A stretch of DNA of 59,510 bases, filler included, from Rhizaria sp. SCN 62-66 (Eukaryota), in NCBI GenBank assembly GCA_001724265.1. It is 2 parts of 2 records of this genome, joined end to end, with 100 filler letters (N's around TTAATTAATTAA, not from the genome) between each part and the next. Parts side by side here need not be neighbours in the genome. Positions count along the whole stretch, not along the records: positions 28,505 to 59,510 come from MEDY01000389.1; 1 more part is not named here. One strand, given 5' to 3'. A program made the translations under genes and the position numbers. The notes under the pieces were generated by a model. The model made no database searches. It saw nothing but the letters and a program-made list of their open reading frames with translations, and had not been told where the DNA came from. This document shows positions 4,532 to 55,455 of the stretch, in pieces. The stretch's first letter is position 1; the number at the start of each line of letters is the position of its first letter.

Positions 4532-5167
4532 CGGGGGGTGACGGGACACGCGCGAGTCCGGACGCTGTGCGGAAAATAAAAAAGAAGTTAATTGTGAGCA
4601 AATTGACGGAATGTCAAGGTTTCAGTTCGATATCTAGTGAATAAGAGGCTTAGATTGGTGCTTAGGTCAGATCTAGGTGTCGAGGTTTTCGAGGCTGGTG
4701 GCGACGAGGACGGGGGTACTCGACAAAAACACAATCGACACTCGCGCAAACTTCCGTCAACAAGGATATCGTGTGTCTGCCAGATTACAATGTGGTGCCT
4801 CGTTTATAATATTTTTAAGTAATTTCTACCAGACTTTTATTACCTCTCACCCCCTCGTTCTTCTTCCCTCTCCGCTCTCCGGCCTCGCCCTCCACCTTGC
4901 CCCCTCTATCTCCTCGCTACAGCACGGCCAAGCAGCTTGAACCCTGTGTATTTGCGTCTGCTGCGTCGTCCTTACGCTTGCCTTGACTCCCACGCACACA
5001 GGCAGTCAGTGCCACAGTGCCAGTTGTGTCGCACAGCGCAGAGACAGCCAGCGCTTTTCAGAATCTAAGACTGGGCTTTGCTTTGCCCGCCCTAACCTCG
5101 TAACAGCAAACAGTCGTCGTAATAACGCGCTTAACAACGACTGCTGCAGCCTCACACTTCTCCCCGC

Positions 5168-7681: not shown

Positions 7682-7743
<62 letters not shown>

Positions 7744-28504: not shown

Positions 28505-28656
28505 GCCGCCGCTGCCGCCGCTGCCGCCTCCGCCTCCACCGCTGCGCCCGGCCGCCGCGGCCCTGGCGCCGCTGCCGGCACCATGGGCGCGACGGGCCTT
28601 GGCGGCAACGCCGCTGCCCGCGCGCCCCGTGGCGCCGCTGCTGCCGCCGCCGCTGC

Positions 28657-28687
<31 letters not shown>

Positions 28688-34091: not shown

Positions 34092-37000
34092 TTAGACCCT
34101 GCTACTGTCCCCACGGCACGCTTCGCGCACTGCCGTCAGCGGCCCCATCTTGCCTCCTTCGGCGCCGATCGCCTCCCCGCGCAGCAGCTCCGTGCCCGCA
34201 AACCGGAGCGCGTGAGTCCATTCGGCCTCCGCGGCGCGCGACATCGCCGCCGTGCGCGCAGAGCTGCCGACCGCGCGTGACGCCTGCTCGGCGCGCGCCG
34301 CCGCGCCCACCAGCGCCGCCGCAAGCCCGCCCGGCAGCCCCGCCGGCAGCCCCACGGGCGCAGCGCCCGCAGTCGCGGGACTGGGCAGCGCGAGCCCGCC
34401 GCTAGCAAATCCCGCACGGGGGCCGTGGGCCGAACCTGGCACTGAGCCGGGGGCAGAGCCGGGCACGCTGCGCTGGTACTGCAGCGCCGGGGCGGCGTAC
34501 GCTGCATTCGCAGCAGGAGACTGCGCAGGGACAGCGTGGCCGGTGGGGATGGCGGGGATCGGGAACGAGAGCGGCGCTGCGGCGGCGATGCCCCAACGCC
34601 GGAACGCTGTGACCGCCGCGACGGGCGCCCCCGCAGCGCCGCCGATCGCGCTCGCGTACGCGCGCGCCGTGGGCACTGCGCGCTGTCCAGTGGCAGCCGA
34701 CAAGGCAGAGCCGCCATGGTCGCGGTCGTAAGTAAAATCAGTCGTCGCAGAGAAGCCATGTGCCGCCGAAGACAATGACGGCGGCGCCCACCGCTGCAGC
34801 TGCTGTTGCTGCGGCGCTTGGGGGAGCGCTTGCGAGCGCGATAACGTCTGCGTCGCGCGCGGCTGCGCGGAAACAAGCGCGTGCGTGCCGTTGCCGTTGC
34901 CGTTGTGGCTCTTTCCAGCCCCGCGCTCGGCGACAACGCCGTCCGCGGCGACCGTGAGTGTGGAGCGCGAAAGGCTCAGCGACAGGTGCCGCGGGCGCAC
35001 CGGCGACGCGGCCGCCGCTGCCGCCGCAGAGCGCGCAGGCCACTGCGGCGCGGCGGGCCCGCGCGCGGAGCCCAGTGCGGACCCCGGGCGCTGCATGGGC
35101 AGTGCGTAGACCGGCCCGCCCTGCCGCAGCGGCGCGGGCCCGCCGTCGCCGCCGCGCCGCGCGGACTCTTGCTCCTGCTGCTGTTTGCGCTGCTCCTGCG
35201 CCTGCGGGTGCGCGCGCAGTTGCTGCGCGGCGGCGAGCGCGGCGGGCGACACGTCTCCGCTCTGCACGAGAAGGTTCGCGCGCGCCAGCTCCTCGAGCCG
35301 CTTGAGCTCCTCCACGGGGTCCTCCCCGGCGCCATCCTCGGTTCCGGGTTCGAAGCCGTACCGCAGCGCTGCACTGCCGGGCCGCGCCGCGGGCTTGGCC
35401 TCGCGCCCGCCCGCCGCCGCGCGCTCGCGGGCCACGGCGTCGGCGGCGTCCGCGCTGGCGTTGGCCGCGGCGAGCACCAGCGAGCGGAACTGCGTGCCGC
35501 GCGCGCTGAAGTCTGTGTCGGCGAAGTTCTCCCCGGCGGCGCTGGCGAGTCCCGAAGGGATAGGGCCGGGGGACACGGGCGGCGGGGGCGCGCCGGTGAG
35601 GCTAGCGCGGTCGTGCAGGTGCCGGCGCGCGTCGCGCACGGCCTCGTCCACGCTCAACACAGGCTCGCGGTGCTGGTACTGCTGCTGCTGGTGTTGCGCG
35701 TGCTTAGCGCGCGTGGACGCCGGCGTGCGCGGCCCGGTCGGGGACGTGTTGTCTCCGCTCGCAGCAGGAGTCACCGAGACGGCAACGTTGTCAGCGGACT
35801 CTGCCTGCGCAGTGCTCGCCTTAAGTGTGAGCGCGGGCGGCGGCGGACGCGTGCGGCGCTCACCGCGGATGGAGACGCCCACGGTGGCCTCAGCCGCGGC
35901 GGCGGCGTCGGCGCGCGCGGCCTCGCCGCAGGGCTTGGGCGCCCAGCCGCTGATGGCGATGCGCGCCGACGCGGGGTCCTGCTCGGTCGGCAGCCGCAGG
36001 TGCGACTGCGAGCTCGACTGCGCGAGCGCCTGCTGTTGCTGCTGCTGCTGTTGATGTGACTGCAGCAGACCTTGTGTGGCGGGCGCGATGAGTTGAGACC
36101 GCTCGAGATGCGCGGCTTGTGCGTGTGTCTGCACGTGTGCGAAGGCTGTTGGAGTATTCGCGTCGGGGCCAGAAGCGACGGAGGCGGCGTAGTGACCCCA
36201 GGGAGAAGCTGCAGACACGTGGGCGTGCATAAGCACCTCTGGCGCTCCTTTCGCGCCCTTGCCACCGGCGCCAGTGTTCAGGTTGATGCTGGGGTTGGTG
36301 TTAGTGGTGTTGCGCAGAATGCGCGCCTTTTCGACAGCGTCGGCTGTGAAATAACGATCGCGTGCAGCCTCTTCCTCCGCAACTACAGCTGCGGCAACAG
36401 CAGCAGCGGCAGCCACGGCAGCGGCGGCCTCAGACTCGGCAGAGTCATGCTCAGACCCGGTCGCAGTGTTAACAGACGCACGAAGCCCTACTCCTGCAGA
36501 AGTAGGCATAAGAGCTTTCTCTGACACAGACTCAGGCTCAGTCTCCTCCGCAATCGGGTGCACAGTCCCGGTCTTGGCAGCGGCAGAGCCAGGAACAGCT
36601 TGTCCGTGTCCGACAACAGCCAGATTGCCGTTATTCGTGTCCGGGTTCGTCGGGGCAGCTGGACGTCCCCACAGCCGCGCCGGCGGCGCGTCCGCGGCCG
36701 CGCTGGCGAGCGCTGCACCAGCAGCGAGTGCCATGGACGGCACGCGCACGCGCGGCTCCGTGACCTTGTCCTTGAGCGCGAACCAGCCGGCAGTGGGCGC
36801 GTCGGGGCCGACCTTGTCTTCACCAGCGCCCTCCGCGCTCTCGTAGTCGCCGCCAGTGCCGGCATAAGCGTCTGCGTGCGCGTCGGCGGCCAGCAGCCAG
36901 TCGGGCGCGGGCGCGGGGCCGAAGCGCGGCCGCGGCGTAACGCGCGAGACCTGGATCAGCGGTGTCTGCTGCGGCTGTGCGGCGGCCGCGGTCACCAGCG

Positions 37001-38682
37001 CAGGCGGCGGCTGCGGCGCCGAGTCCGAGGCCGTCGAGAAGTCAAGCCGCCACGCGTAGTGCGCGCGGTCGGTCGACAGCGGGGGCACGACGCGCCCGCC
37101 GCCGCCGCCGCCGGCCAGCGCGCCGATTAGCCCCGCGTCGACGTCGGGCAGAAGCGCCACGGGAGCCTCGCCCGTCACGGCCGCGTAGAGCGACTGCGGC
37201 TGCGAGCCCTGCGGGTGAATCGCCGTGCGCGCGCGCGCGGCCTCGCGGCGCAGCGCAGCGTCGCGGGTCCACACGCGCCCGCTGCCGCCGCCGGTCCAGG
37301 GCCCCACTGGGGGCCGCACGGATGCGGCAGCGACGCTGTCAGCGGCGCCCACGGTCACCGCGCCGCTGCTGCTGACGGTGACGGTGCCGACGCTCGCGCT
37401 GCTGGAGAGCACGAGTGGCGGGTCGACGAGCGTGAACATCTCGGCCGGAGCCGCGGCGGCCGGCGCGGGGCGCGCCCGTGCGGGCTTGCCAGTGGGCTGC
37501 ATCAGCGCCTCATGCTGCTGCCGCGCCGCCGCGACCGCGCGCCGGCCCTCGGCGGCCAGCGCGTCGCCCGCGGCGACCGGCGAGAACGCGGCCACAAGAG
37601 CAGAGGCGCGAGAGTCGCTGGACTGGGCGGCGCGCGGGCCTGTGGCGGCGGTGACGCGCGTCTGCGTCGCGGGCGGGGCAAAGAGTGAGTCGCTGTCGGG
37701 GTTGTTGAAGAAGTAGCCTCCACTGTCGCCGCGAGCCGACTCATCATCATTTCCGTCGTCTTCAGCAAGGACGAGAGCAGTGCTTCCTGTTGCGCCAGCA
37801 GCTTCGTTGCCGTTGCTGTCCCTGACAACCAACGCGCCGTTCGCAGCGGCCTCGTCGTCCAGCGCAGCAGCCGCAGCATCGGCAGCGTCATCATCGTCAT
37901 CATCGTCGCCGTCGCCATTTTCGACGTTGTTGCGCCAGTCGTCGTGGACGCGCAGCCACGAGTCGGCGCGCCGGAACCTGTTCCTGGCCCGGCGCTCGGC
38001 GCGCACGACGTCGCCCGCGCGCGCCACCACGAGCGCCACGGCGCGCGCGCGCAGCGCGTCCTCGGCGTCGCCTTCGATGCACACGAGCGCACCCGCCGCG
38101 CCTGCCGCCGCCGCGGCTTCAACGGCTGGGTCGGCCGCGCGCTCGCGCTGGCGCCAGCCGCGCTCCCCGGCCGCAGCGAGCTCGGCCACGCGCGCGTTGA
38201 GTGCGCGGCGCAGCCGGCGCTCGGCGCCCGCGAGCGCGCGGCGCGCGGCGCGCGGCAGCGCGCGCAGTGCGGCCACGGCGGCGGCGCGCTCGGTGAGGGC
38301 TGACGCGGCCGCGGACGCAGAGGCCGCCGCCGCGGACAGGGCGGGATCGTGCGGGGACGCCGCAGCGGCGGCCACAGCAGCCGCAGCGGACGCGGCGGCG
38401 GCGGCGACAGCAGCGTCAAGGTCAAAGCCAGCGGACGCGCGAGCGCCGTCGTCGACGTTCTTGCTTTCGTTGTCGTCATCGTCATCGTCGTCGTCAGATG
38501 CGGCTCCTTCGACTGCAGCGGGCAGCAGCGCGCCCCAGGACGGCGTCGGCTGCAGCGCCTCGGCGGCCGTGGCGGCGGCGGCAGCGGCGGCGGCGTCGGT
38601 CGCAGCGGCCTCAGCGGCGTCGGCGTCGCCGATGTGCGTCTCGGTTAAGAACGTGCCCCGCGCAGCGGCGTCACCCGTGCTG

Positions 38683-38717
<35 letters not shown>

Positions 38718-39347
38718 CTCGGCGTCGGCAGCAGCGGCGGCGGCGGCGCTGGCGTCGGCCTCGGCGCCGTCGCCGGCAGCGGACTCGGTGCTCTGGAACA
38801 TCGCGGCAATCGCGCGCGCCACGCTCTTGTCCGAATCGCCGGCGCCTACGACGATTCCGGAGAGCGCGCCACCAGTCGGCGCAGGCGCGGGCGCAGCAGC
38901 GGTAGTGGATGAAGATGTAGGCGTGGACACTACGGAGCGGCTGGGGACGCGGCGGTGGCCGCGGCGGTCAGCCAGCACAACTGGCTCGTACACGCTCGCC
39001 GCTGCAGCCACCGCGGCGGCAGCGGCGGCAGCGGCGGCAGCGGCGGCAGCGGCGGCAGCGGCGGCAGCGGCGGCCGCCTCAGCCGCCGCCGTGGAGCCGG
39101 AGTCGGACAGAGCTGAGGCGCCGTCATGCATATACATAGCGGCGTCTGCGTCAACAGCAGTCTCTGTTGCAGTGGCACTGGAGCTGTTGAAGGGCAGGAT
39201 GCCTGCGCACGTGCCAGTGCCGAAGCCGGAGGGCAGGAGCAGTGCGCTCCCGGTCGGCGTCGCGGTGCGCGCGCCAATGACGCTACTGCCGCTGCTGATG
39301 CCGCTCGTCGAGGGACCCAGGCCGTGCAGCAGCGATACGGCCGCCCT

Positions 39348-39380
<33 letters not shown>

Positions 39381-42300
39381 TTGTAGCTGCTGCATGGTGA
39401 TGTGCTGTTGCTGCTGCTGCAGCAACGCGGCCGCCTTGAGCGCGCCTGCGACCGTGCGTGCGCGGCGCCGCGCGAGCTTGAGCACGTAGAAGCCTGCGTG
39501 CAGCGGCAGCGGCAGGTGCGCCGTGGCCTCGACCTCGAGCAGCGGCACGGGCACCAGTACCAACGGCCGCCGCGGGTTGAGCGAGTGCCACGCGCGCCAG
39601 TGCGCCGCCGCGGGGGCCGACACGCCCGCGCCGGGCGCGTTGCCAGCAGCGCCCGCAGTCGCTGATGTTGCTGTCGTGGTGTGCACAGTTGCCTTCGCGG
39701 CGGGGCCGAAGAGGTGCGCGACGATGGGCGGCAGCGGGGCCGCTGCGGCCGCGGCGAGCCCGGTGCTGTCGCTGCTGAGGTCCAGCGCGCGCGCGCGACC
39801 GCTGGCGCCGCCGCCGTGGGAGTCAACCGTGTCCGCCTTTTCGCCCGCGGGCCGCCGCGCCCCCGCCCCCGCGCCCGCGCCCGCGGCGTCGGCGGCCGAG
39901 TCTGATGCGGACGCAGCGGTCGAGCCGGCGCCGCCGTGGCCGCCGCCGCCGGTCGCGGTGGTGGTCGTCGTCGTCGTTGTCGTCGTCTCCGGCTCCAGGT
40001 CGGGCAGCTCGCCCGCGTCGGGCTCGGGGTCATACAGCCACAGCTGCGTCAGCTCGGCGTACGTCAGACTGCGCTTCCCCGCCCCCGCCCCCGCAGCAGC
40101 AGCAGCAGCAGCAGCGGCGGCGGCGGCAGCAGCAGCGGCGGCGGTGGGCGTGGCACCGGCAGTGGCGCCGGTGACCGGGGTGGGCGCGCGCGTCGGGGCG
40201 ATCGCGCCCGCTAACGCGCCCGCGCCGCTCTTGGGGCTCACCGTCGAGGACGACGACGCGCCGGCGGGCGCGGGCAGCGGCGGGAGCGCGTCGGTCTCGA
40301 CGGGACGCATCGTGCGGTAGATGAGCGTCAGCAGCAGCTCGACGAAGGCGTGGCGGCCCACGCCCGGCGCCCACGTCAGCAGGCTCCGCAGCAGCGCCGC
40401 CGCGAACAGCGGAAACGTCAGCGGCGGCGCCTGCTCACTGCTGCTGCTGTTGCTGTTGTTACTGTTGTTGCTGTCGGCGAGCTGCGCGCGCAGCCAGGCA
40501 ACGTCGATGACCGTGGGCGGGGTGAGGGCGCGGCACCAGCGCAGGAAGGCGGCCTGGTACACCGGCCACGTCACTGACATTGGCACCGCCGCGGCCGCCG
40601 CCGCCGCCGCCGTGGCCGCGGTCGAGGTCGGCGAGGGCGCAAGACGGGCGCCGCCCGCTGCTGCGATGGGGCCGTGGGGGCTGTGGCGAGGGCTGCCCGA
40701 CGGCGTCACACCGCTCCCGCTACCACTGCCACTGCCGCTGCCGCTAGCGGCGGCGGAGGCGGCGGTGGCGAGGGGCAGCGCGCCCCAGATCAGCAGCAGC
40801 AGCGCGCGCACGTCGGCGTCGTCGCGCAGGGCCGCCTCGGCAGCGCTCGCCGCTGGCTGGCCCCAGACGTCGAACGACGCGGCGCCGCCGAAGATGAAGT
40901 TGCTGCTGTTGCTGCCGTTGTTGTTGCCGCTGGCGCCGTGGTGCGCGCCGCCGAGCGCGGGGGAGAGCTGCGCGCCCGACACGTAGGGCGAGAAAGCGGA
41001 GGAGAACTGCGGCGTCACGGCCGGGCCCGAAATCGGCGAGGGCGACGGCAGCGGCGCCACACCGCCGTTCGCGCTCTGGGTGAACGCATGGCGGCTGTGC
41101 GACTGAGAGTGCAAGTGCGTGGGCGCGTTCGAGTGGGTGGGCGGTAGCGGGAAGCTCGAGTGCGTGGCCGCGGACGCGGAGGACGCTGGCGACCCGGGCA
41201 GCAGCGCCAGCGCGACGGGGACGGCTTGCGACTGCACCGAGGAGTCGGCGCTAGTTACGGCTCCAGCAGCGCCAGCAGCAGCAGCTACCGGGGGATTTGT
41301 CGCGAACGAGTCGGGAAGCGAGCTGACCGTAAGCCCGTGCGCCGCCCCGTGCCCGTGCCCGTGTCCATGCGGTGTGTGGTTGCCCGCATAATGCGCCAGG
41401 CGCGCGCCGTGCGTCCCCGAGGCGGGCGCCGAGGCGTCAGAGCCCGAGACGGAGGTAGCGACGTTGACCGCACTGGGCGCCGCGACACCTCTGGCAAACC
41501 CGCCAGTGATCGTGGTGCCACTCGCTGTCGCCGCCGTCGCCGCAGTCGCCACGGAGCTGGAGCCGGAGCCGGAGCCGGAGCCTGAAACGGAGCTCGAGGC
41601 AGAGCCAGAGCCAGAGGCGGAGCCAGAGCCTCTGGAGCCTGAGGCAGCAATGGACTCGAGCGCAGCCGGGAACGGCGACTGCGCACCGCCAGCATTCGCT
41701 GCACTGCTGCCGCCGCTGCCCACGTTGAAGAGAGCATGAGCGTCCGGATTGGTGATTCCGTGTGCGTTCGCGTGCACAGTGGGCGCGTGGCCAGAGTGGC
41801 CGTGCGCCGCGGCGCCGAGCGTGAATGACGCGGACGGCGCGCCGGCCAGCCGCCGCAGCGAGCCCGAGGCTCTCGCGAACGCGCCGCCGCGCGGAGTCAT
41901 GCTAGTGCCCGCGCTAACAGCACCGCCGTGTTGATGCTGCTGTTGCTGAGCCTGTGAGTGTACGTGCGAATGCGACGGCGACTGCGCGTGCTGGTTGCCG
42001 TGGCCGTAACCGCCGCCAGCGGGGGCCGCGCGCGGCGACAGCCCCGGTGCAAGCCTGGGCGAGAGCGCCGGCGTCAGGCCCGACGCCGCGTGCGCCGCTG
42101 CGGGCGAAAGCGCGGGCGCGGGCGCGTGCATGGGCGTGAGGGACGCCGAGGCGGGCGCTAGCAGCGGCGTCGACATAAGCGCGTCCGTGTTCAACGCGTC
42201 ACGGTAGGCGCGCGCGGCGCGGGGACCCAGGTGCAGCTCCGTGGGCGCGTTGGTGAAGTTGTACAGCGACGCCGGCGTCGCTGCAGACGCCGACGCAGAG

Positions 42301-42647
42301 GCGGAGGCGGCATGGAGGCGGGCGGAGGACGGGGACCCTGGAGTCGCTGATGATGAAGCGGGGAAGGGCGCGGACGCGGTGAGCGTCGACGGCGGGGGCG
42401 CGGTGAGCTCGGCCGCGAGCGCGGCAAGCCCGGCCGGGGTCAGCGGGACGGAGGGAGCTGCGACACCAGTCGCGGCGGGCGCACCAGGAGCAGAGGCGTT
42501 AGAGGTGAAGAATGCAGACTGAGAGGAGGAGGACGAGGGGGAGGCGATAGACAGAGCGACGCGGTTGGGGCGCGCCATCGAGAGGCGGTCAGGGCCGTAG
42601 ACTACGGGAGCCGGCGCGGTAGCCGCAGGCGGCGCGGAAGGGTCCAT
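34092..42647 (-). CDS. Giant single-exon low-complexity protein (~2851 aa) with a degenerate EF-hand-like helical domain
   Basis: 8.5 kb uninterrupted ORF, first ATG at 42647 (MDPSAPP), stop TAA. Ordered segment at ~40310-40825. Confidence 0.8.
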
Positions 42648-43338
42648 GGGGTGGGGACGCACGCCACGAGCAGAGGTCAACTAGTCCGTTTCTGAGCTCT
42701 GTTCTGAAGGGAGCGAGAGTACTAGGAAGAAAGGCTTCTGGAAATATTTCAAAGTTAACACGGTAGAGTTAGTTAGCTTTGTTCATGAAACTAATGACAA
42801 CACTAACTTTGACGATCGGACTAGTGTGACATAGACGGGTGAATTAAGGCTTTCAGGGCGGTCTCCGTTGGACCGTGTTCTCAAAAATGGCGGCAGCTGA
42901 CGTGGTTTGTGTAGAAATCGGGAATAGTCATCGTAACACCTGTGAAGGTTGTACAGTGAATTCAGTTATTGTTCGCGTTTTTTGAAGACACTTTTAACCG
43001 AATTTTATTATAACTTTTGCTCAAAGTCTGAGAATCAGAGTGTATTTCCGCATGCACTTTTCTCAGCTTCACCGAGTGATTGCGTTGAACAACCGTCTCC
43101 TCCCAGGCCCCGAGCTCACCCCACATCGTCTTATTTTTGAAACTACACGTCTTGTACAGATTGTTATACATTTTAAAGTGGCTGTGATCTTTGCCGCAGT
43201 TCGTTTCACGCTTCCCTTCGCTCGCTGCGCGCTCTGAGGTACCCGCTCGTCGCACCTCCAACCGCCCGCGTCGCCTGCGTTCCTCTCGCTCGCCGCGTCC
43301 CCCCGCTTTCGCGCGCCGCCCTGACTTCCCTCACCGCG

Positions 43339-45411: not shown

Positions 45412-48400
45412 ATGCCGCCCCGCGCCCGCAAGCCCAACTCCACGGTCGTGGAGGACCTGGAGGAAGAGGACGCCGGCCACGTCTTTGAGATGGACGAGGC
45501 GGAGCTCCAGTCGCAGATTGAGGACCTGTTCGCGTTCGTCAACGGCATCGGCACCACGCCCACCGACTCAGCGGGCGCAGGCGTGTTCATGCTGGGTCCG
45601 AAGGGCATGAGCTGCCTCCGCGCCATCGACGCCGCGCTCGACGAAGACGACGCCAAGCGCCAGCCGCTGCACGCGCGCCTGGGCGTGTGGAGCTTCTCTG
45701 CGAAGCGCGCTGTGCCTGTGCTGCTCGCGTACCGCGACAAGCCCGACGTGATCTTCGCGCTGCTGCAGATCCTCATCCGCCTCACCGCGCCCCTCGCGCC
45801 CACGCTCGAGGCGGGCGCCGTGGAGCGCGTGCGCCACCAGCAGCAGACGAAGCTGGCGTTCGCGAACAAGGACCTCGTGATGATCCTGCTTTCGCTGCTC
45901 GAGGCGCCCGTGCTGTCGTGGCAGGAGAAGGGCTTTGCGGGCATGTCCGACGCCGACAAGGACATGCTCGACATCGTGCTGCTCTTCTTCCGCAACCTCC
46001 TCGTCGTCGTTGACCCCAGCGACGCCGTTGACGCCAGTGCGCGCCTGCACGACCGCTTCCTGCTCGCGCTCAGCCGCGGCGGCTTCTTCTCGCTGCTTCT
46101 GTGGCTCACGCAAATCTCAAACGCCAACGCTGCCGCGGCCGCCGAGGCCGCCGCGCGCTCCGGGCGCGCCTCCGCGGGGCCTATCGACCACTTTGCGCTG
46201 CTACTGATGGAGATCACGTTCAACGTCTTCCGCAACGAGGCTCCCGAAGACTTTTTCGGTCCGCTCGCGGGCACTGGCCCGGTCGCCGCCGCCGCCATCA
46301 CTGACGGCTCGAGTCCCAGCAAGCCCAGCTCCAGCTCTGCCTCTGCCTCCGCCTCTGCCGCCGCGGCCCCGGGCACGAGCACGGCGTCGAGCGGCTTCGC
46401 GGGCGTGTCGCGCGCGGGCTCCTTCGCCGCCGCTGCGGCCGCCGTAGTCGCCAAGAACCCCGCCGCGGCGCGCGCACTGCCCGCGGGCGCGGGCGGGCGC
46501 GGCATGCGCGTAACGCTTGTCGCGCCGGGTCCGGCCGGCGCGCGACGTGTGGCGTCGCTGAGCGACGTGATCCAGAACAAGGTGACGAACAAGGACGCGC
46601 AGCTGGCCGAGAAGATCGGCGGCAGGGACGTCAAGCTCGCACGCGGCCGCCGCTTCTACTACTCTGAGGCCGTGCGCGACGCGCTGCGCTCCTTCGCGCT
46701 CGCGCTGCTGCGCCCCGAGGCCGGCAACGCGGCCGCCGCGGCGGCGGAGGAGCGCGGCGGCGCGGGCGCGCTTGCCGCCGTCGCCGCCGCGTCGCTGGGC
46801 GCGGGACTGTCCTTCATCACGGGACAGCAGAACACGATGAACGCGTTCATGCTGCACTGCCACAAGCAGATCCAGCGCACGATGACTGAGGCGACAGTGG
46901 AGGAGCGCGCGCACTCGGCGCACACGGCCAAGGGCGTGCTGTTCCTGGCCGCGCTCTTCACCGGGCTCGCGCGCGAGCACTACGACGACCTGCGCGCGCA
47001 GCACGACAGGAGTACCGAGCCCGCGCGCAAGGCCTGGGCCGCCAAGCGCCGCGCGGAGGAGGTCGCTGCGGCGCGTGCGCGCGGGACGAGCGAGAGCGAC
47101 GTCAAGAAGATCGAGGCGCGCAAGGACTTCGGCCGGCCGGCGGACCTGCCGCCGTCGCCACGCTACTCGCTCGCGCCCGTCTCGGCGCTGTGCGAGAACG
47201 AGATGTATGCGTTCGCGATGCGCATGGCGTACGACGCGTTCGACGCCAAGCCCGTAGTCTGGGGCGGCATTGAGAGTGCGATTGCGTTCGTGCACGAGTT
47301 GGTGCGCACGACCTACACCGCGCTCTCCGCGGGTGACGCCGAGACGCAGGCCGCGGCGGCTACGATGCGCGGGAACTTGCTGCACCTGAAGGAGCACCTG
47401 GACCTGATCATCAAGGCCGTCAAGTTCTTTGACGGCACCAAGACGGGGCTGGGCCACCGCGTGCACCTGATGGTGACCGTGCACTACCTGATCAAGATCA
47501 TGGAGAGCATGGGCGACGAGGCCTTTGAGATCAAGGGCAAGGAGAAGGACTACAAAACCACCGTGCGCAAGACCAAGAAGCAGGTCAACGCCGATGCCGC
47601 AGGAATCACGCTTGACGATGACGATGACGACAACGTTGAAGATGATGACAAGAACGACGACGACGACGATGATGGTGATGACTCTGATGAGGAGAAGTCA
47701 TCTGACTCCGCGTCTGCCCGCCGTGTCCGCGCCGAAGACGACGACGACGACGACGACGACAAAGACGACGAAGAGGAAGGCGTTGGTGGTGAACCCTTGA
47801 CCGCGGGCTCCAAGAGCGCTGGCGCGCGTCGCCGCATGCTTGACGACGACGATGACGATGAAGATGACGACGACGGCAATGATCGCGCTAGTGCGAGCTT
47901 GAGTAGCGTCAGTGCGAGGGCTGACGCTGATGCTGATGCTGATGCTGGCGCTGATGAGAACAAGGCTGACGACGGTGGCAGCAGCAGTAAGTCCTCCTCT
48001 GCCGCTGCCTCTCCTGCCAATGCTGCTGGTGCTGACGAAGCTTTTGTCAATGTTGCCGACAACGCTGACAAGGACGAGGACGACGGCGAAAACAGCAAGG
48101 ATAGCATTAACGACCTGAGCGCGATGGCGCGTGAGATCACCGAGCAGGCCGCCGCCAAGGCCGCGGCCAAGGTGCAGGCGCGCGCGGACAAAGAGGCCGC
48201 GGCGGCCGCCAAGAAGGCCGCCACGGCCGCGAAGCGCGCGGAGCTGGCCGGCACGGAGCTGGTGGTGGAGACGCGGCGCATGCGCAAGGGCGTGTCGTGG
48301 CACGCGGTGGACTTCATCCGCGAGCTCGCGCAGCCGCAGATCGTGCGGCAGTACGTCGAGGCCGCGGAGCAGTACCGCACCAACAGCGATCTGATGAACG

Positions 48401-50106
48401 AGGCCGTGTTCAAGCTGCTTTCGCGCGTCGCCTTCGACCTCAACCTGCCGGGCATGTTGTTCCACTTCACCGTCATGGTGCTCGCCGACGATGTGCTCAA
48501 CGAGCCGCTCGCGCGCAAGCACCCGCCGCTGTACCGCGCGCACGACTTCTGCAAGCGCATCGCCACGGCCTTCATTACTGCCACCGCGCGCAACGAGCTG
48601 CTGTACGTCGAGGCCACGTCGTGGTGCAGCGCACGCACCGCCGAGTACATCGCGGACCCGCTTGAGTGGGCCAAGAACCACATGGACCAGATCGATGACC
48701 TGTTCGGTGGCGAAGACGACGGGTCCGGCGCCGGCGGCGACGCCGCGGCTGCGGCCGAGGCCGAGATCGCGCGCAAGCACGGCGAGGAGGCCGCGGACGA
48801 CTTCCGCGTCTGGCTCGCCGAGCGCAAGGAGAAGGAGCAAGCCGACAAAAGCAGTAGCAGCAGCAGCGGCGGCAGCAGCAGTGGAAGTGGTTACGGGCGC
48901 AGCAGTGGCGGTCGCGGCGGCTATGACGATGACGACGATGACGACAATGCCGATATCCGCGCACTCCTCGAAGCGCGCCGCGGCGCAAGCCGCTCCGCGC
49001 GCGCCAGCACCCGCGGCATGGCGAGTGCCATCAGCGGCGCGGGCAGTAGTAGCTCGAACCCGCATGCAAGCGCGCTGGCGTTCAGTCTGGGTCGCTCGCG
49101 CCGCAGCCTCGGCGACGACGACGACGACGCCGAGGACGTGGCCGACCTTAAGGACGCGATGAAGACCGCTGCGGCGGCCGCGGCGGCGCAAAAAGCGAAG
49201 CGCGAGGCCGACAAGGCCGCCAAGGAGGCCAAAGTGCGCGAGCGCGAGGAGAAGAAGGCCGCGCGCGAGGCCGCGAAGGAGCAGAAGAAGGCGGCGCGCA
49301 AGGGCAAGAAGGGCAAGAACAGCTACGACGGCGACAGCGAGAGCGAGAGCGCCGCGGACGACGACGGCGACAACAGCGACAACGACGATGAGGACGACGA
49401 TGACGGCGATGACGATGACGCTGCCGATGGGGCTGCTGCGAATGAAGGCGATGAGGCCAAGTCTGCTGACGCTGGTGACAAGAAAAGTGACGGCAACGAT
49501 GACGACGCTGCGGCTGATGCTTCTGATAAGAAGGCGAAGAAGAGCAAGGACAAGAAAGATAAAAAGGACAAGAAGAAGGACAAGAAGGACAAAAAGGCTT
49601 CCTCTTCTTCGTCTTCCGCCTCAGCGCACGCCGACGACAACGGCGACAGCAGAGACGACGCCAGAGACAGCGATGCCGACACGGGCGACAAGAGTGACGC
49701 GGCTGAGTCCGACGTTGACGACGGCGAGGGCGTGAGCGCGTTCGAGCTCGCCATCCTCTCCAAAGCCAAGGCCATCAAGGCTGGCGCCAAAGCCGACGCC
49801 GCGGCGGCCAAGGCCGACAAGGCCGCGGGCAAGCACGGCGGCGTCAAGTCCCCGACGCCCAAGGACGGCGCGGGCGGCCGCGACAAGCGCCGCCGCACTG
49901 TTTCTTACAGCGCCGACGACGACGATGCCAACGCTGCCGGTGGGGACGACGACGGCAAGGAGGGCAAGAGCAGCGCGCCGGCGCGGCGCCGTGTCAGCGC
50001 TCTCGACGACGGCGATGACGATGACGGCGACAACGATGCGAAGGAGGATAGCAAGCCCGTGGTTGTGACCAAGCGGCGCATCATTGCCGACGATGATGAT
50101 GAGTAA
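45412..50106 (+). CDS. TIMELESS: Timeless/Tof1/Swi1 replication fork protection protein (1564 aa)
   Basis: N-terminal pattern FMLGPKGMSCLRAIDAALDEDD...LGVW...VPVL...LLQILIRLTAP and LLFFRNLL. Later block FIRELAQPQIVRQYV...YRTNSDLMNEAVFKLLSRVAFDL...MLFH. Acidic/basic tail. Confidence 0.88.
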   Translation: MPPRARKPNSTVVEDLEEEDAGHVFEMDEAELQSQIEDLFAFVNGIGTTPTDSAGAGVFMLGPKGMSCLRAIDAALDEDDAKRQPLHARLGVWSFSAKRAVPVLLAYRDKPDVIFALLQILIRLTAPLAPTLEAGAVERVRHQQQTKLAFANKDLVMILLSLLEAPVLSWQEKGFAGMSDADKDMLDIVLLFFRNLLVVVDPSDAVDASARLHDRFLLALSRGGFFSLLLWLTQISNANAAAAAEAAARSGRASAGPIDHFALLLMEITFNVFRNEAPEDFFGPLAGTGPVAAAAITDGSSPSKPSSSSASASASAAAAPGTSTASSGFAGVSRAGSFAAAAAAVVAKNPAAARALPAGAGGRGMRVTLVAPGPAGARRVASLSDVIQNKVTNKDAQLAEKIGGRDVKLARGRRFYYSEAVRDALRSFALALLRPEAGNAAAAAAEERGGAGALAAVAAASLGAGLSFITGQQNTMNAFMLHCHKQIQRTMTEATVEERAHSAHTAKGVLFLAALFTGLAREHYDDLRAQHDRSTEPARKAWAAKRRAEEVAAARARGTSESDVKKIEARKDFGRPADLPPSPRYSLAPVSALCENEMYAFAMRMAYDAFDAKPVVWGGIESAIAFVHELVRTTYTALSAGDAETQAAAATMRGNLLHLKEHLDLIIKAVKFFDGTKTGLGHRVHLMVTVHYLIKIMESMGDEAFEIKGKEKDYKTTVRKTKKQVNADAAGITLDDDDDDNVEDDDKNDDDDDDGDDSDEEKSSDSASARRVRAEDDDDDDDDKDDEEEGVGGEPLTAGSKSAGARRRMLDDDDDDEDDDDGNDRASASLSSVSARADADADADAGADENKADDGGSSSKSSSAAASPANAAGADEAFVNVADNADKDEDDGENSKDSINDLSAMAREITEQAAAKAAAKVQARADKEAAAAAKKAATAAKRAELAGTELVVETRRMRKGVSWHAVDFIRELAQPQIVRQYVEAAEQYRTNSDLMNEAVFKLLSRVAFDLNLPGMLFHFTVMVLADDVLNEPLARKHPPLYRAHDFCKRIATAFITATARNELLYVEATSWCSARTAEYIADPLEWAKNHMDQIDDLFGGEDDGSGAGGDAAAAAEAEIARKHGEEAADDFRVWLAERKEKEQADKSSSSSSGGSSSGSGYGRSSGGRGGYDDDDDDDNADIRALLEARRGASRSARASTRGMASAISGAGSSSSNPHASALAFSLGRSRRSLGDDDDDAEDVADLKDAMKTAAAAAAAQKAKREADKAAKEAKVREREEKKAAREAAKEQKKAARKGKKGKNSYDGDSESESAADDDGDNSDNDDEDDDDGDDDDAADGAAANEGDEAKSADAGDKKSDGNDDDAAADASDKKAKKSKDKKDKKDKKKDKKDKKASSSSSSASAHADDNGDSRDDARDSDADTGDKSDAAESDVDDGEGVSAFELAILSKAKAIKAGAKADAAAAKADKAAGKHGGVKSPTPKDGAGGRDKRRRTVSYSADDDDANAAGGDDDGKEGKSSAPARRRVSALDDGDDDDGDNDAKEDSKPVVVTKRRIIADDDDE

Positions 50107-50714
50107 GTCACGCGTCGGTTGAGTGATCTGTTGTCAGTTACTGTCACTCTTTGTGGTGCTGTCACAATTGCTCCTATTTTTACTTATTTACCCTAGTATG
50201 ATGACTTGAAAGTTTGTTTTGTGAGATGAAAAATGATGTAAGCTTATGTGTTAAATACATTATTATCTCGCAAGTGCAAGCGACAACTCCTCGTTACCGG
50301 CTAGTTTGAAGTGATTCTTTGTGTATTTTGTTTCACAGTGTGGTGTTTGTTAACAACAACAAGTACATTTAAGACGGTAATCTAATTTGTCCATGTTCAA
50401 ATCGAAAAGCAGCATAGCTGTAGCAGCTACTACAAGGAATCAATAGTAACGCATACAGTGCTGAAGTGTTGGCTCAAAAACAGAGTGGCTAAGAAAGCTT
50501 GTTTTCAAGTCCAGGTCACGCCCTCGGTGTTCTGACCACGCAAATGCTCACAACTGTCACTGTACAATCGTACTACTTATGATGTCGTACTAAGTCACTG
50601 CCATGAGAAAAGCACGTGCGTGAAAGAGAAACCAAGGCTATACAAGTCAAGGAGATATGCGCTCTCCGTCAAGCAACCACTGGACATCGGTCGGTGCGCG
50701 TTGTAATTGCTTAC

Positions 50715-51965
50715 TTACGCCTTGATGTCGACACCGCGCTTCCAGAGCGTCTCGAAGTGCTTGACGTAGGGCGCGACAACGACGGGGATGTTGGTGCAGA
50801 TGACGTTCTCCTGGTTGCCGCTCGAGGCCGCGCGCGACCAGTTGAAGGAGCCCGAGATGACAAACTTGCCGTCGACGATGGCGTACTTGTGGTGCATGAG
50901 GAACTCGGACGAGTCGTGGCGCGTCGCGATGCCCGTCTTGGCCAGCGGGATGACGTCGGAGCCGGGCTCGTTCATGGTGGTCTTCTCAGTCATAAAGCGC
51001 ACCTTGACGCCCTTGAGGTGCAGCCCCTCGAGCGCGTTGAACGTGCGGTCGTCCGTCATGGTGAACACGGCAACCTCGAGCGTGCGCGTGGCAGACTTGA
51101 TGTAGTTGATGAACTTGTCGTACGAGAACTGCTCCGGGTTGTTGGGGTCGTTGGGGAAGAAGATCACGTCCGAGATGGGCTGGGCCGCGTTGTAGTCGAG
51201 GTTCAGGGGCTCGAACGCGGGCGCCTGCAGCTTCGCGCCGCCGGCAGCCAGCGCGTTGTTGTCGCGCACCATGGGCGCGGAGGAGTGGATCAGGCCCTCG
51301 ATTTTCTTCTGCAGCTTCTCCAGGTCGGCGTCGGCGCCGATGGCGGTGACGAGAGCGGCCTTGTCGGCGCCGCGGGGGACCTCAATCTCGCAGTTGAACT
51401 CCTTCTCCAGCTCCTTAAGCGTCGCGCCCTTGGGACCGATGATGGCGCCAAACGAGCCCTGGTCGATCTTGAAGCCGACGGTAACGAGGGGCGAGGTCGA
51501 GAGCTTGAGGCCCGTCTTGGCCTCGGCCTCGGCGCGCCACGCGGCGACGCCGGCGTCGGGGCCCTGGACCGTAATCAGCGGGTCGTTGTCGCCCTGGGGA
51601 GGGATACGCGCACGCACGCCGTGCTTCTCCTGCATGTTCTTGGCGACGGAGCCGCCAGCGCCGACGAGGGCGCCGTGCTGCTTGGGGGGCAGCCAGAACT
51701 GGTGCACGTCCTTGGGCAGCGACGCGGCCGGGGCGGGGGTGCTCATGGCCTTAGCAGGGGCAGCGGCAGCAGCAGCAGGCTTCTCGGCAGGCTTGGCAGC
51801 AGCAGCAGCGGGGGCAGCGGCGGCGGCGGCAGGCTTGGCGGCAGGGGCGGCGGCGGCAGCGGCGGGCTTAGCAGCAGCGGTCGACGCGGGCTTCTGCTGG
51901 GGGGAGTTGGCGGGCTTGGAGTTCTTAGGCTTGTTGTTGTCACCACCGCAAGGAGTATTGCCCAT
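50715..51965 (-). CDS. Fusion of two KH domains and a PLD6/Zucchini/Nuc-type single-HKD phospholipase D/nuclease domain (416 aa)
   Basis: KH1 HGALVGAGGSVAKNMQEKHGVRARIP and KH2 FGAIIGPKGATLKELEKEFNCEIEVP. PLD core MHHKYAIVDGKFVISGSFNWS...NQEN. N-terminus MGNTPCGG. Confidence 0.9.
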   Translation of the reverse strand: MGNTPCGGDNNKPKNSKPANSPQQKPASTAAAKPAAAAAAPAAKPAAAAAAPAAAAAKPAEKPAAAAAAPAKAMSTPAPAASLPKDVHQFWLPPKQHGALVGAGGSVAKNMQEKHGVRARIPPQGDNDPLITVQGPDAGVAAWRAEAEAKTGLKLSTSPLVTVGFKIDQGSFGAIIGPKGATLKELEKEFNCEIEVPRGADKAALVTAIGADADLEKLQKKIEGLIHSSAPMVRDNNALAAGGAKLQAPAFEPLNLDYNAAQPISDVIFFPNDPNNPEQFSYDKFINYIKSATRTLEVAVFTMTDDRTFNALEGLHLKGVKVRFMTEKTTMNEPGSDVIPLAKTGIATRHDSSEFLMHHKYAIVDGKFVISGSFNWSRAASSGNQENVICTNIPVVVAPYVKHFETLWKRGVDIKA

Positions 51966-52473
51966 GCTTGAAAGTGAGAATCACTGCGCAACAAAGAGAA
52001 AAAAGGAGTCAAGGGAGTGGTCGAATCTGTGAGTTGGCTGTTTAAATGGTTTCATCTCTACCATGCGTGACAAACGCAACAGAAATGCATCACATAAATA
52101 GTGAATATACAAACATCTTCATTTATTCCAAATATGTTTAAATCAGTCCACTTAACTGTCACTACGTCCCACACACAGAACATAATGAAGATGCGTGTTT
52201 CGTCAGCACTCCATTTCGCCTCGTGTCGCTAAACTGTCCACGCATTTATCGGTCCACGAACTTTTATTCGCAATGTACGTAAAGGCAATGTAACTTGATT
52301 GAACATGTTTAACTCAGCAAAAAAATCGTGTATTTATGTTCTCTGGCCCTGTGTCAAACTTGAATTAACCACAGGCCCCCTCATCACCAACGCGCATATC
52401 ACTCATATTGGTATTGGTATCCCCCTCCATTGTTGCAGTCTGCAGTCCGACAAACTGACGCCGTTGCTGATGT

Positions 52474-53983
52474 TCACCTGTTGCTGCCTGTGTCTCCGGA
52501 ATCCGCCGCGGCCGCCCTGGCCAGCGCCCCCAGCGGCGCCATCTCCACCTCCTGCCCCGCACCACCACCGCCGCCGCCTCCTCTCGCCGCGCTGGAGTGG
52601 TCCGCGTCCATCCCTGAGCCGGAGCTTGACCGCCCCAGCGCAACCTCGGTGCCCGCGAACGCGTCATGCTGCTGCTGCGCGGCCGACCCCGCCGCGACGT
52701 GCGTGCCCTGCTGCGCTGCGCCCGCCGAGTGCCGCTCCTGCCCCTCCGGCACCGCGCCCAGCGCGAGCCCGCCGCCGCCCGCAGTCTGACTGCCACCGCT
52801 GCCGCCGCGTCTGTTATTATCCTGCACTTGCACGGGAGCCTGCAGGTGCAGGAAGCCGCGGCCGTCGCCCGCACCGTCGTACCCGTCGCCCGCGGCGTCG
52901 CTGCCGCCGCCGAAGAGCCGCTGCCACAGCGACCTCTTTGGCTGAGCATTCGCGTTGCTGTTGTTGCTGTTGTTGCGGGGATTCGCGGGCAGGCCGCTGC
53001 GGTCCCTGGTCGTGGCGAGCGAGGCCCCGCGACCGCGCGCGTAGTACTGCACGCGGTCCGCGTCCTCGTCCTCCTCGGCGGCGGCCGCGGCGGCCTCGGC
53101 GGCGGCGGCGCGGCGGCGGCGGCGGCGCGCGGCGGCTTGATGCTCCCGGCGCAGCGCGGCGTGGCGCTAGCTCAGCAGCGCGTCCATGTCGCCCTCCAGG
53201 TCGCCCGCAGCGTCGATGTCGTAGTCGGGCGAGACGACGCCGAAGTGCTCGACCTGAGGCGGGTCAGAAAAGATGGGGCAGAGATGAAGATCGTAACAAG
53301 AGAAAGATGGCATAGTGAGTTACGATTGAGAGAGATATACAACGAAGATATTTGACATTAGAATAACAATATGATTGTTATTGCTAATAAATATACAATA
53401 TAACAATTATTTAAACATAATAAATAATACTCTTAAAAATTATCAAGAACTACAAAGGTTAAGACCAGTCTATCTGTTGTTTAGAAGAAATGAGACGCAC
53501 CTGAAAGCGGTCTGTCTTGGCCTTGACAAGAGACCGAATGGCAAAGAAACCGACAAGGAACTCGATGACGCAGAAGGCGGCGTAGATGGCGCCAAACGCG
53601 CGGTCGATGGGCAGCAGCGGGTACTGGATGGCCATCATCCACACGCAGTGGATCAGCCCCAGGAAGAAGGTGAGGAAGATGAAGGCGGCCAACTGGGGCA
53701 CGCGCTCCTTGAGGTTGCCCTGCCAGCCGAGATACAGCCGGTAGGGCTCAAGCAGCAGGTAGATAACGTAAAAGATGGGCGTGACAAAGGCAATGCGCCA
53801 CTCGGAGTAGTTGCGGTACTTGTAGATTAGCAGCAGCAGCTGGATCAAGGTGTAGATGATGCTGTAGAAGAAGTTGAAGTACAGCGCCTGGTGCAGCGGC
53901 AGGTTCGACAGCAAGGGAGTGTTGCGCAGCGGCTGTGGGTAGGGCTCATTCACTGGCCGCGTCACATACCGGGGCCACTCCAT
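52474..53983 (-). CDS. TMEM17: TMEM17/TMEM216-family ciliary transition-zone protein; exon 2 has an in-frame TAG followed by ~230 more open codons
   Basis: LSNLPLHQALYFNFFY...EPYRLYLGWQGNLKERVPQL is the Transmemb_17 signature. Exon 53983-53501, intron GTGCGT...CTGAC..CAG, exon from 53253. TAG at 53167-53169 (189 aa if stop); next stop TGA at 52474-52476 (420 aa). Confidence 0.8.
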
Positions 53984-54455: not shown

Positions 54456-55455
54456 ATGAGTCGTCCCGAGCTTATCGCGGCCCCTGACGTCTTTTATGAC
54501 GCCACTGAAGCCAGCAAGTATGGCCACAAGTACGTCACGCTCTTCTCTTTTCCATTTTTACCTCAAATCACTCTATCATCTGCTCTTTATAACCCCGTCT
54601 ATCGCACTACTCCTTATAGTCTCACTTCTCTCTCCCTTTGCTTCCGCTTCCCTGGCAACCTGCTCCCCGTCCAGCACCCGCATGCTGCGCATCCAGACCG
54701 AAATGACCGAGCGCGCGCTGCAGCTGCTGCGGCTGGACGAGTCGCGCCCGAACTACCTACTCGACGTGGGCACTGGCTCGGGGCTCAGCGGCGAAGTGCT
54801 GTCCGAGCACGGGTACGCGTGGGTCGGCGTCGACATCTCGCCCTCGATGCTCGGCGTCGCCCTCGAGCGCGAGGTCGAGGGCGACCTCATCTGCGCCGAC
54901 ATGGGCCAGGGCATGAACTTCCGTCCCTCGACCTTCGACGGGTGCGTCAGCATCTCGGCGCTGCAGTGGCTCTGCAATGCCGACGAGTCGGACCACATCC
55001 CGCAGCGCCGCCTCAAGCGCTTCTTCACCTCGCTCTACCGCGTCCTCGTTAAGGGCGCGCGCGCCGTACTGCAGTTCTATCCCAAGGACGCGGACCAGGT
55101 TGCCATGATTACGCGCTCGGCGCTTAACGCTGGCTTCTCGGGCGGCGTCGTCATCGACTACCCCAACTCGACCAAGGCCAAGAAGTTTTACCTCTGCATC
55201 CTCGCGGGCGAGCCCGACACGCGCGCCACGGCCGGCATCCCGCAGGCGCTGGGCGTCGACGTGCTGGGCGAGCCGACGCAGATCCAGGTCAACTCGAACC
55301 TGGAGCGCGGCAACAGCCGGCGCAAGCAGCGTAAGCCCAAGTTCGAGACGCGGCGCCAGTTCGTGCTGCGCAAGAAGGAGCGCCAGCGCAGGCAGGGCAA
55401 GGACGTGCGCCCCGACACCAAGCACACCGGCCGTAGTCGCAACATCCGCTTCTGA
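54456..55455 (+). CDS. BUD23: 18S rRNA guanine-N7 methyltransferase (284 aa, 2 exons)
   Basis: Exons 54456-54529 and 54675-55455 (intron GTACGT...CAG). Motifs MSRPELIAAPDVFY, IQTEMTERALQLL, LLDVGTGSGLSG, ISALQWLCNAD, GFSGGVVIDYPNSTKAKKFYL and the basic C-terminus. Confidence 0.96.

Follow-up and report, generated by a model that had tools for sequence, protein, structure and literature searches.

A protist KH-KH-PLD6 protein with a lipidation-type start: a member of a widespread eukaryotic family and a candidate membrane-tethered nucleic-acid endonuclease

The window considered here, 59,510 nucleotides from Rhizaria sp. SCN 62-66 (assembly GCA_001724265.1; two parts joined through 100 filler letters), contains a 416-aa open reading frame (ORF) at 50715-51965 on the minus strand, running from ATG to TAA in a single exon, in which two KH domains are fused to one phospholipase D (PLD) domain of the single-HKD type known from PLD6, Zucchini and Nuc. 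There is hardly any doubt that the protein belongs to a KH-KH-PLD6 family, and this family is apparently large, widespread and unstudied. The protein itself is probably, though far from surely, a dimeric endonuclease of single-stranded nucleic acids with RNA as its main substrate and an acyl anchor. The parts of the gene are listed below with the evidence for each, including the AlphaFold2 (AF2) model and its per-residue confidence (predicted local distance difference test, pLDDT).

50715..51965, minus strand: whole ORF, 416 codons plus TAA, with an in-frame TGA upstream at 51981-51983
51945..51965, minus strand: aa 1-7, MGNTPCG, candidate N-myristoylation (Gly2) and S-palmitoylation (Cys6) site
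51714..51944, minus strand: aa 8-84, Pro/Ala/Lys-rich low-complexity spacer of ~77 aa (composition, codon bias)
51513..51710, minus strand: KH domain 1, type I, ~aa 86-151 (Pfam KH_1, AF2 topology)
51651-51662, minus strand: GxxG loop of KH1, GAGG, aa 102-105 (sequence)
51288..51488, minus strand: KH domain 2, type I, ~aa 160-226, with GxxG loop GPKG at aa 177-180 (Pfam KH_1, AF2)
51174..51287, minus strand: linker between KH2 and the HKD domain, aa 227-264, variable in length among homologues (alignment), pLDDT down to 72-82
50718..51173, minus strand: single HKD (PLDc_2) domain of PLD6/Zucchini/Nuc type, aa 265-416 (Pfam, fold, profile)
50871-50894, minus strand: catalytic motif H358-x-K360-x4-D365, followed by GSFNW (aa 372-376) and NQEN (aa 384-387)
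50627..52065, minus strand: region covered by contigs of a polyA library (50627-50880, 51296-51681 and 51690-52065), likely the minimum extent of the mRNA, a weak hint

The domain matches are far above chance. Pfam detects KH_1 in two stretches (E 3.3e-21) and PLDc_2 in one stretch, aa 286-408 (E 3.7e-23). The AF2 model of aa 75-416, made from 33 aligned sequences, has a mean pLDDT of 92.2 and a predicted template modeling score (pTM) of 0.83, and contains two beta-alpha-alpha-beta-beta-alpha KH units (E-H-H-E-E-H twice in DSSP) together with an HKD fold. The catalytic set is complete: H358-x-K360-x4-D365, G372-S373-x-N375 and N384-x-E386. An initial annotation, made from the sequence alone, had described two KH domains with intact GAGG and GPKG loops and one complete HxKxxxxD...GSxN...NxE site, and both are borne out by these matches. 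The MGNTPC start with Gly2 and Cys6 that it pointed out is also present, reading MGNTPCGG. Its Ala/Pro-rich linker was correctly described, but the string quoted for it, PAAAAAPAAK, is one Ala shorter than the actual sequence, where the spacer reads ...KPAAAAAAPAAKPAAAAAAPAAAAAKPAEKPAAAAAAPAKA. Residues 1-84 include 36 Ala, 15 Pro and 9 Lys with a net charge of +7, and the DNA coding for the spacer consists of imperfect GC-rich tandem repeats. The domains themselves carry no Ala insertions, as had been claimed; this holds against the 32 homologues in the alignment, and the neighboring Timeless-like ORF does have long Ala-/Asp-rich inserts.

The architecture had been regarded as unusual, a view that is not sustained by a search of wider scope. 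Exhaustive phmmer comparison of aa 75-416 with 1.84 billion cluster representatives (50% identity) yields 10,326 proteins with an E of at most 1e-3, of which 116 score 1e-30 or better. When the best 150 of these 10,326 relatives are rescored separately against the two portions of the query, KH and PLD, 63 representatives match both (62 of them with one PLD stretch), 56 match the PLD part only (39 with two to four PLD stretches), and 31 match the KH part only, these being vigilin-like proteins of ~1,200 aa. Pfam applied to the 115 of 149 relatives that do not exceed 700 aa (34 longer proteins left out) finds KH_1 with one PLDc_2 in ~60. Many relatives of ~320 aa match the query over its full extent with 26-41% identity, and one 306-aa metagenome fragment (P0003) shares 82%.

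An organism is named for 6 of the 28 family members that were looked up. KH-KH-PLD proteins are found in Thecamonas trahens (Apusomonadida; XP_013761341.1, 'phospholipase D6', in UniRef 'Mitochondrial cardiolipin hydrolase'), Flabellula baltica (Amoebozoa), Diplonema papillatum (Euglenozoa/Diplonemea; KAJ9465457.1, 'Mitochondrial cardiolipin hydrolase'), Lacrimia lanifica, Rhynchopus humris (labeled K16862/PLD6) and Nonionella stella (Foraminifera). The lineage was confirmed in taxonomy for four of these six carriers, namely Apusomonadida, Amoebozoa, Diplonemea and Foraminifera; Lacrimia and Rhynchopus we take to be diplonemids. The fusion is therefore widespread rather than unique: no fewer than four deep branches of eukaryotes carry it, and public databases already list it, under names obtained by transfer. 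The initial annotation had allowed for an architecture that is common and already characterized. Common it is, while no published characterization was found. A full-text literature search (papers in subscription journals and supplements lay outside it) turned up no description of a KH-PLD6 fusion, and the passages of PMC7641849 which refer to Tudor-KH, as well as MitoPLD/Zucchini, as mitochondrial piRNA factors mention no fusion.

Other collections give fewer leads. The ESM Atlas has no cluster of at least 50 members with KH and PLD; its nearest clusters are MitoPLD and bacterial PLDc_2, with scores of at most 0.82 (lead level only). A metagenome locus scan with the single protein gave no relative, and with the family alignment it gave 80 loci, where none of the 75 ORFs with a PLD match also matches KH (PLD-only genes). 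Word-indexed protein searches returned only 3 and 7 proteins, dominated by low-complexity and KH words.

Within the family the motifs are strongly conserved. When the query is aligned with 32 KH-KH-PLD homologues, HxKx4D, GS[FYL]NW and NxEN are kept in all 33 sequences, the KH2 GxxG in 31 of 33, and the KH1 GxxG in 27 of the 29 that cover that loop. Because the catalytic site and the GxxG loops both appear to be under selection, both halves of the protein are likely functional. The other protist KH-KH-PLD6 proteins have the same architecture from end to end and the same invariant motifs; they differ in that most lack an N-terminal extension, and the Ala/Pro/Lys repeat spacer is peculiar to the protein described here. 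Additional modules occur in the vicinity of the family. HHH_3 is found in tandem-PLD paralogues (e.g., P0025, P0039, P0040, P0065, P0066, P0070 and P0125), CCCH zinc fingers in P0023 and P0044, and P0104 is a KH-KH-cold-shock domain-PLD protein. To judge by such architectures, it seems that modules which bind nucleic acids were joined to PLD6-like domains on repeated occasions. The tandem PLD6-like proteins of protists (P0022-P0031, P0039, P0040, P0044, P0065, P0066, P0070 and P0125) form a sister set, and several of them start with MGC, MGN or MGG.

The phylogenetic check suggested at the outset took the form of a quick, unrooted IQ-TREE analysis of 141 PLD domains of relatives (133 columns; animal PLD6 and Nuc are not among the rows). 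Its resolution is poor, too low for a single origin of the KH fusion to be claimed. On this tree 17 changes are required for the KH label, at least seven of them forced by well-supported branches, which counts against the favored reading.

The HKD domain is PLD6 by sequence and Nuc-sized in structure. Among solved proteins, the single sequence matches mouse MitoPLD (4ggj) with E 6.7e-21, Nuc with 4.2e-12 and fly Zucchini with 3.8e-10. The order is similar with the family profile against the Protein Data Bank (PDB), where mammalian MitoPLD scores E 1.4e-48 and 3.5e-48 (169 and 168 bits), fly Zucchini 6.5e-32 (114 bits), Nuc 4.6e-25 (92 bits), NucT 2.2e-19 (73 bits) and PLD3 ~2e-7 (34 bits). In structural comparison with VIA-align, Nuc (1byr) has the highest Z, 23.2, with a root-mean-square deviation (rmsd) of 1.6 and 149/152 residues aligned, followed by NucT (6ehi, Z 22.0), mouse Zucchini (Z 21.3, 34% identity) and fly Zucchini (Z 21.0); Foldseek ranks 1-10 are all Nuc, Zucchini or NucT, with E from 2e-13 to 1e-10. 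The aligned 149 residues span 174 of the mouse chain and 152 span 197 of the fly chain, whereas the Nuc span is only 152. A zinc-finger insertion is absent, the loop past the first strand, VIFFPNDPNNPEQFSYDKF, being short and containing no Cys or His, and 29 of the 33 aligned family members have at most two Cys/His in that loop. A short loop lacking the insertion, an alignment of Nuc length and a best profile score to PLD6 together give a domain with PLD6 sequence and Nuc size.

Animal PLD6 is attached to the mitochondrial outer membrane by an N-terminal transmembrane (TM) helix, and has a Cys/His zinc-binding insertion after the first strand. The protein described here resembles animal PLD6/MitoPLD/Zucchini (4ggj, 9lkx, 4gel) in having one HKD domain in which the H-x-K-x4-D, GSxN and NxE motifs are all present, in the predicted composite-site homodimer, and in likely being tethered to a membrane through its N-terminus. 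It differs in the missing Cys/His zinc-finger insertion, in having two KH domains where animal PLD6 has none, and in having an MGxxxC acylation-type start in place of the TM helix; no TM helix is detected, the highest 19-residue Kyte-Doolittle mean over the whole protein being 0.96. Nuc and NucT occur as domains on their own, either secreted or periplasmic. As single-HKD dimeric nucleases of minimal core size they provide the best fold match, but their sequence similarity is lower than that of MitoPLD, and the present protein is eukaryotic, of cytosolic type, and KH-fused.

A lone HKD motif cannot build an active site with two histidines, and Nuc and Zucchini pair to make one. Modeling of the dimer, another check proposed initially, predicts a homodimer for the present protein. 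For two copies of aa 259-416 the interface score (ipSAE) is 0.81 (runs 0.78, 0.81 and 0.81) versus 0.00 for the best of three controls, with at least 96% of contacts common to the runs and a partner pLDDT of at least 88. The predicted interface is symmetric and contains H358, K360, S373 and N384-N387, the geometry of a composite site. In calibration, the score threshold is reached by 21/30 solved same-chain pairs and 0/23 solved single chains from microbes, and by 17/29 pairs and 0/30 single chains from eukaryotes, where only 1/7 pairs without an older solved relative reach it. One point counts against the prediction: since the dimers of Nuc and Zucchini have been solved, the pass may be model memory. 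The score is a measure of likeness to known dimers, not of binding.

The KH pair is most similar to generic KH didomains. Its profile matches IGF2BP1 in the PDB with E 1.2e-16 (IGF2BP1-3 all at ~1e-16), PCBP2 with 1.3e-15, Nova-1 with 1.2e-13 and vigilin with 1e-11. With the same profile, the KH domain of TDRKH (1we8) has an E of 7.7e-8, weaker than many generic KH proteins, and a Pfam scan of the protein finds no Tudor domain at E up to 1. The initial annotation had drawn a parallel with Papi/TDRKH, the KH-KH-Tudor partner of mitochondrial Zucchini. What remains of this is an analogy. Two KH domains that work at a membrane beside a Zucchini-type nuclease would be common to both systems, here in one chain, but the Tudor domain is missing and the KH pair is no closer to TDRKH than to the didomains of IGF2BP, PCBP2, Nova and vigilin.

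From these parts a mode of action can be proposed. Translation would begin at Met1, Gly2 would be myristoylated and Cys6 palmitoylated, and the chain would hang at the cytosolic face of a membrane on its ~77-residue Pro/Ala/Lys spacer. The two KH domains, to judge by their intact GxxG loops and by what is known of the KH family, would hold single-stranded RNA (ssRNA) or single-stranded DNA (ssDNA). Two HKD domains, predicted to pair here as established for Nuc and Zucchini, would bring their H-x-K-x4-D motifs together in one active site. By comparison with Zucchini and Nuc, the bound strand would be cut endonucleolytically via a phospho-histidine intermediate, leaving 5'-phosphate and 3'-OH ends. 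In such a scheme the zinc-finger insertion that aids RNA binding in Zucchini would be replaced by the KH pair, and the TM helix of animal PLD6 by the acyl anchor. Its role in the cell may lie in the decay or processing of RNA, in the biogenesis of small RNAs, or in defence.

The start MGNTPCG fits G-{EDRKHPFYW}-x2-[STAGCN]-{P}, the PROSITE-type N-myristoylation pattern, with the addition of Cys6; the modification itself is predicted. Similar starts recur among relatives with extensions, defined as proteins with a Met start and at least 25 residues before the first domain. The MG pattern is present in 7 of 16 extended KH+PLD relatives (the query included) and in 7 of 39 extended PLD-only relatives, each time with six that have Cys at positions 3-7, and in none of 30 KH-only controls. 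Pooled, 14/55 PLD-bearing proteins (12 with Cys at 3-7) compare with 0/30 KH-only proteins (Fisher p = 0.0016, for related sequences that are not independent). Examples are MGICGS in Nonionella, MGCFES in Lacrimia and MGCDQS in Diplonema. Because MG..C starts recur in distant lineages, it is suggested that several protists use dual acylation for tethering to a membrane surface, a task that a TM helix performs in animals. The proposal in the initial annotation of a lipidation-type start on a membrane-tethered nucleic-acid enzyme gains support from the motif and from this recurrence. What weighs against a general role is that 41/57 Met-starting KH+PLD proteins begin within 25 residues of KH1 and have no extension, and thus the anchor does not characterize the family; many of the relatives' models come from short contigs or transcriptomes, whose N-termini may be cut.

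Some transcript-type sequences cover the gene. A 376-base contig from a polyA metatranscriptome library is colinear with the DNA over 51690-52065 with no differences and spans the ATG. The 3' piece from this library (50627-50880) differs in 12 of 254 letters and may stem from a related strain. The same polyA run leaves 50200-50569 and 52124-52400 uncovered, two stretches through which DNA-type runs continue. The contigs hint at an unspliced mRNA of at least ~1.4 kb, and only hint at it because such RNA libraries may contain DNA. A 1,563-base contig from a cDNA-labeled metagenomic library matches 50450-51974, with 19 unmatched letters at each end. Its 5' break, situated 9 bases upstream of the ATG, could be explained by an assembly artefact, a strain difference or an added leader. 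A short upstream ORF is present at 51981-52064 on the minus strand (ATG 52064/52055, TGA 51981-51983), in the same frame as the main ORF. An upstream exon joined through a splice-acceptor-like run (a T-rich tract and CAG, ~51984-52005) was considered and rejected because a stop lies in frame behind it, the polyA contig is colinear, and the homologues have no conserved sequence before KH1.

A lipid anchor would require translation to begin at Met1, not at Met74, so the choice between the two is important. No start codon of this frame lies between the in-frame TGA at 51981-51983 and the ATG at 51965. None of the 73 codons of the extension ends in A, whereas A-ending codons make up 22% and 25% in the remaining two frames. 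The domain part likewise has none among its 332 codons, and all nine Lys codons in the extension are AAG. The GC content, 0.41 over the 300 bases that precede the ATG, climbs to 0.70 within the extension, and in CAAGCATGG, the context of Met1, position -3 is A and position +4 is G. The A-free third positions, the GC rise, the position as first ATG and the -3/+4 context favor Met1 over Met74. The other view, that the N-terminal 73 residues are not made or not lipidated and that the product is a soluble KH-KH-PLD6 protein from Met74, has a minority chance, one that overlaps the estimates for the remaining readings. Several observations speak for it and against a start at Met1. A prokaryote-style gene call of the same DNA (P0002, 343 aa) begins at Met74, which sits where the short homologues start, 17 residues ahead of the LPPK strand of KH1; the 41/57 homologues lacking an extension agree with such a start, the GC-rich repeats leave a second frame open as well, and two further ATGs (52064 and 52055) lie upstream in the polyA contig, if the 5' untranslated region reaches there. 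To these are opposed, beside the codon and context features just given, the polyA-library contig that spans the ATG and the MG..C starts of independent relatives that include diplonemids and a foraminifer. A second, soluble isoform from Met74 is possible.

As to the substrate, the comparative evidence leans to nucleic acid over lipid, and the acyl-anchored endonuclease with RNA as its main substrate remains the favored reading of the protein. MitoPLD was reportedly first described as a cardiolipin hydrolase, and a membrane anchor would suit a lipid substrate. A phospholipid (cardiolipin-type) hydrolase that makes phosphatidic acid at its own membrane, with KH domains that recruit or regulate it through RNA, would be in keeping with these points: 'Mitochondrial cardiolipin hydrolase' is the deposited name of the nearest sequence relatives among solved proteins, the named homologues carry the same automatic name, and the probable acyl anchor places the enzyme at a lipid surface. 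We nonetheless think it very doubtful. The names are automatic transfers and the best fold matches are nucleases; the catalytic domain shares its chain with two KH domains whose GxxG loops are conserved, and in relatives with HhH (helix-hairpin-helix), CCCH and cold-shock modules; and a lipid substrate is hard to square with a family in which most KH-KH-PLD proteins (41/57) have no membrane anchor at all. Also unlikely is a Nuc-like non-specific nuclease for DNA (or DNA and RNA) that acts on foreign or damaged DNA held as single strands by the KH domains. KH domains bind ssDNA as well, some KH proteins such as hnRNP K and FBP being examples, and the HhH fusions of the paralogues, in tandem-PLD proteins with a ComEA-type HHH_3, indicate DNA, which is a further point against RNA; the core is also of Nuc size (149/152 aligned, rmsd 1.6) and has no zinc-finger insertion. 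In contrast, animal PLD6 (169 bits) is far nearer in sequence than Nuc (92 bits), the top matches of the KH didomain (IGF2BP1-3, PCBP2, Nova-1, vigilin) are mRNA-binding, and there is no signal peptide or TM segment, which would make the protein cytosolic, where RNA is the commoner substrate.

The identity of PLD6/MitoPLD at its root, lipid enzyme or nuclease, has been argued since 2012. The KH fusions, together with HhH, CCCH and cold-shock modules in paralogues, provide comparative evidence for nucleic-acid substrates across eukaryotes. A much bolder possibility, and an improbable one, is that KH-KH-PLD6 is an ancient eukaryotic version of Zucchini, namely an ssRNA endonuclease that is self-sufficient, sits at membrane surfaces and makes 5'-phosphate ends for a small-RNA or RNA-surveillance pathway of protists, and that animals moved the holding of RNA to TDRKH/Papi. 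If so, tethering would be a recurrent need, for which animals use a TM helix and several lines of protists dual acylation, and the ancestral job of PLD6 would have been nucleic-acid cleavage, not cardiolipin hydrolysis. The repeated MG..C starts in place of a TM helix suggest work at the membrane surface as a conserved trait of the family. The family also supplies compact, soluble single-chain constructs with which an RNA-binding module that steers an HKD nuclease could be tested. The value lies in the family; the gene described here is one further member, with its own spacer and acyl-type start.

The surroundings of the gene are eukaryotic. The window has long intron-free ORFs with a GC content of 0.65-0.80 and AT-rich spacers between them, and Pfam matches of its ORFs include Timeless, ALG6/ALG8, RhoGEF-PH, TMEM17 and a Bud23/WBSCR22 methyltransferase. 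Its DNA is present in bioreactor, wastewater and activated-sludge runs. The Timeless-family ORF (45412-50106, plus strand, 1,564 aa; Pfam TIMELESS E 1.2e-18) has very long Asp-, Ala- and Ser-rich inserts and converges on the KH-PLD6 gene, the two stop codons being ~600 bases apart. Four ORFs are very long, at 34092-42680 (minus strand, 2,862 aa), 1616-4549 (minus strand, 977 aa), 7241-10192 (plus strand, 983 aa) and 28583-31477 (plus strand, 964 aa); they have no Pfam match at E up to 1e-4, and the GC content of this part of the window is 0.70-0.81. On the other side of the gene, a homologue of TMEM17, a ciliary transition-zone protein, is encoded at 53459-53983 on the minus strand (Pfam Transmemb_17 E 5e-24), and because of it the host probably builds cilia or flagella. 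It is followed at 54496-55452 (plus strand) by a Bud23/WBSCR22 18S rRNA methyltransferase whose best named relatives, from animals and Gonapodya, share 54-58% identity. Between the KH-PLD6 gene and TMEM17, a GC-rich block at 52300-53355 contains overlapping low-complexity ORFs, Arg/Pro-rich on the plus strand and Gly/Ala/Ser-rich on the minus strand.

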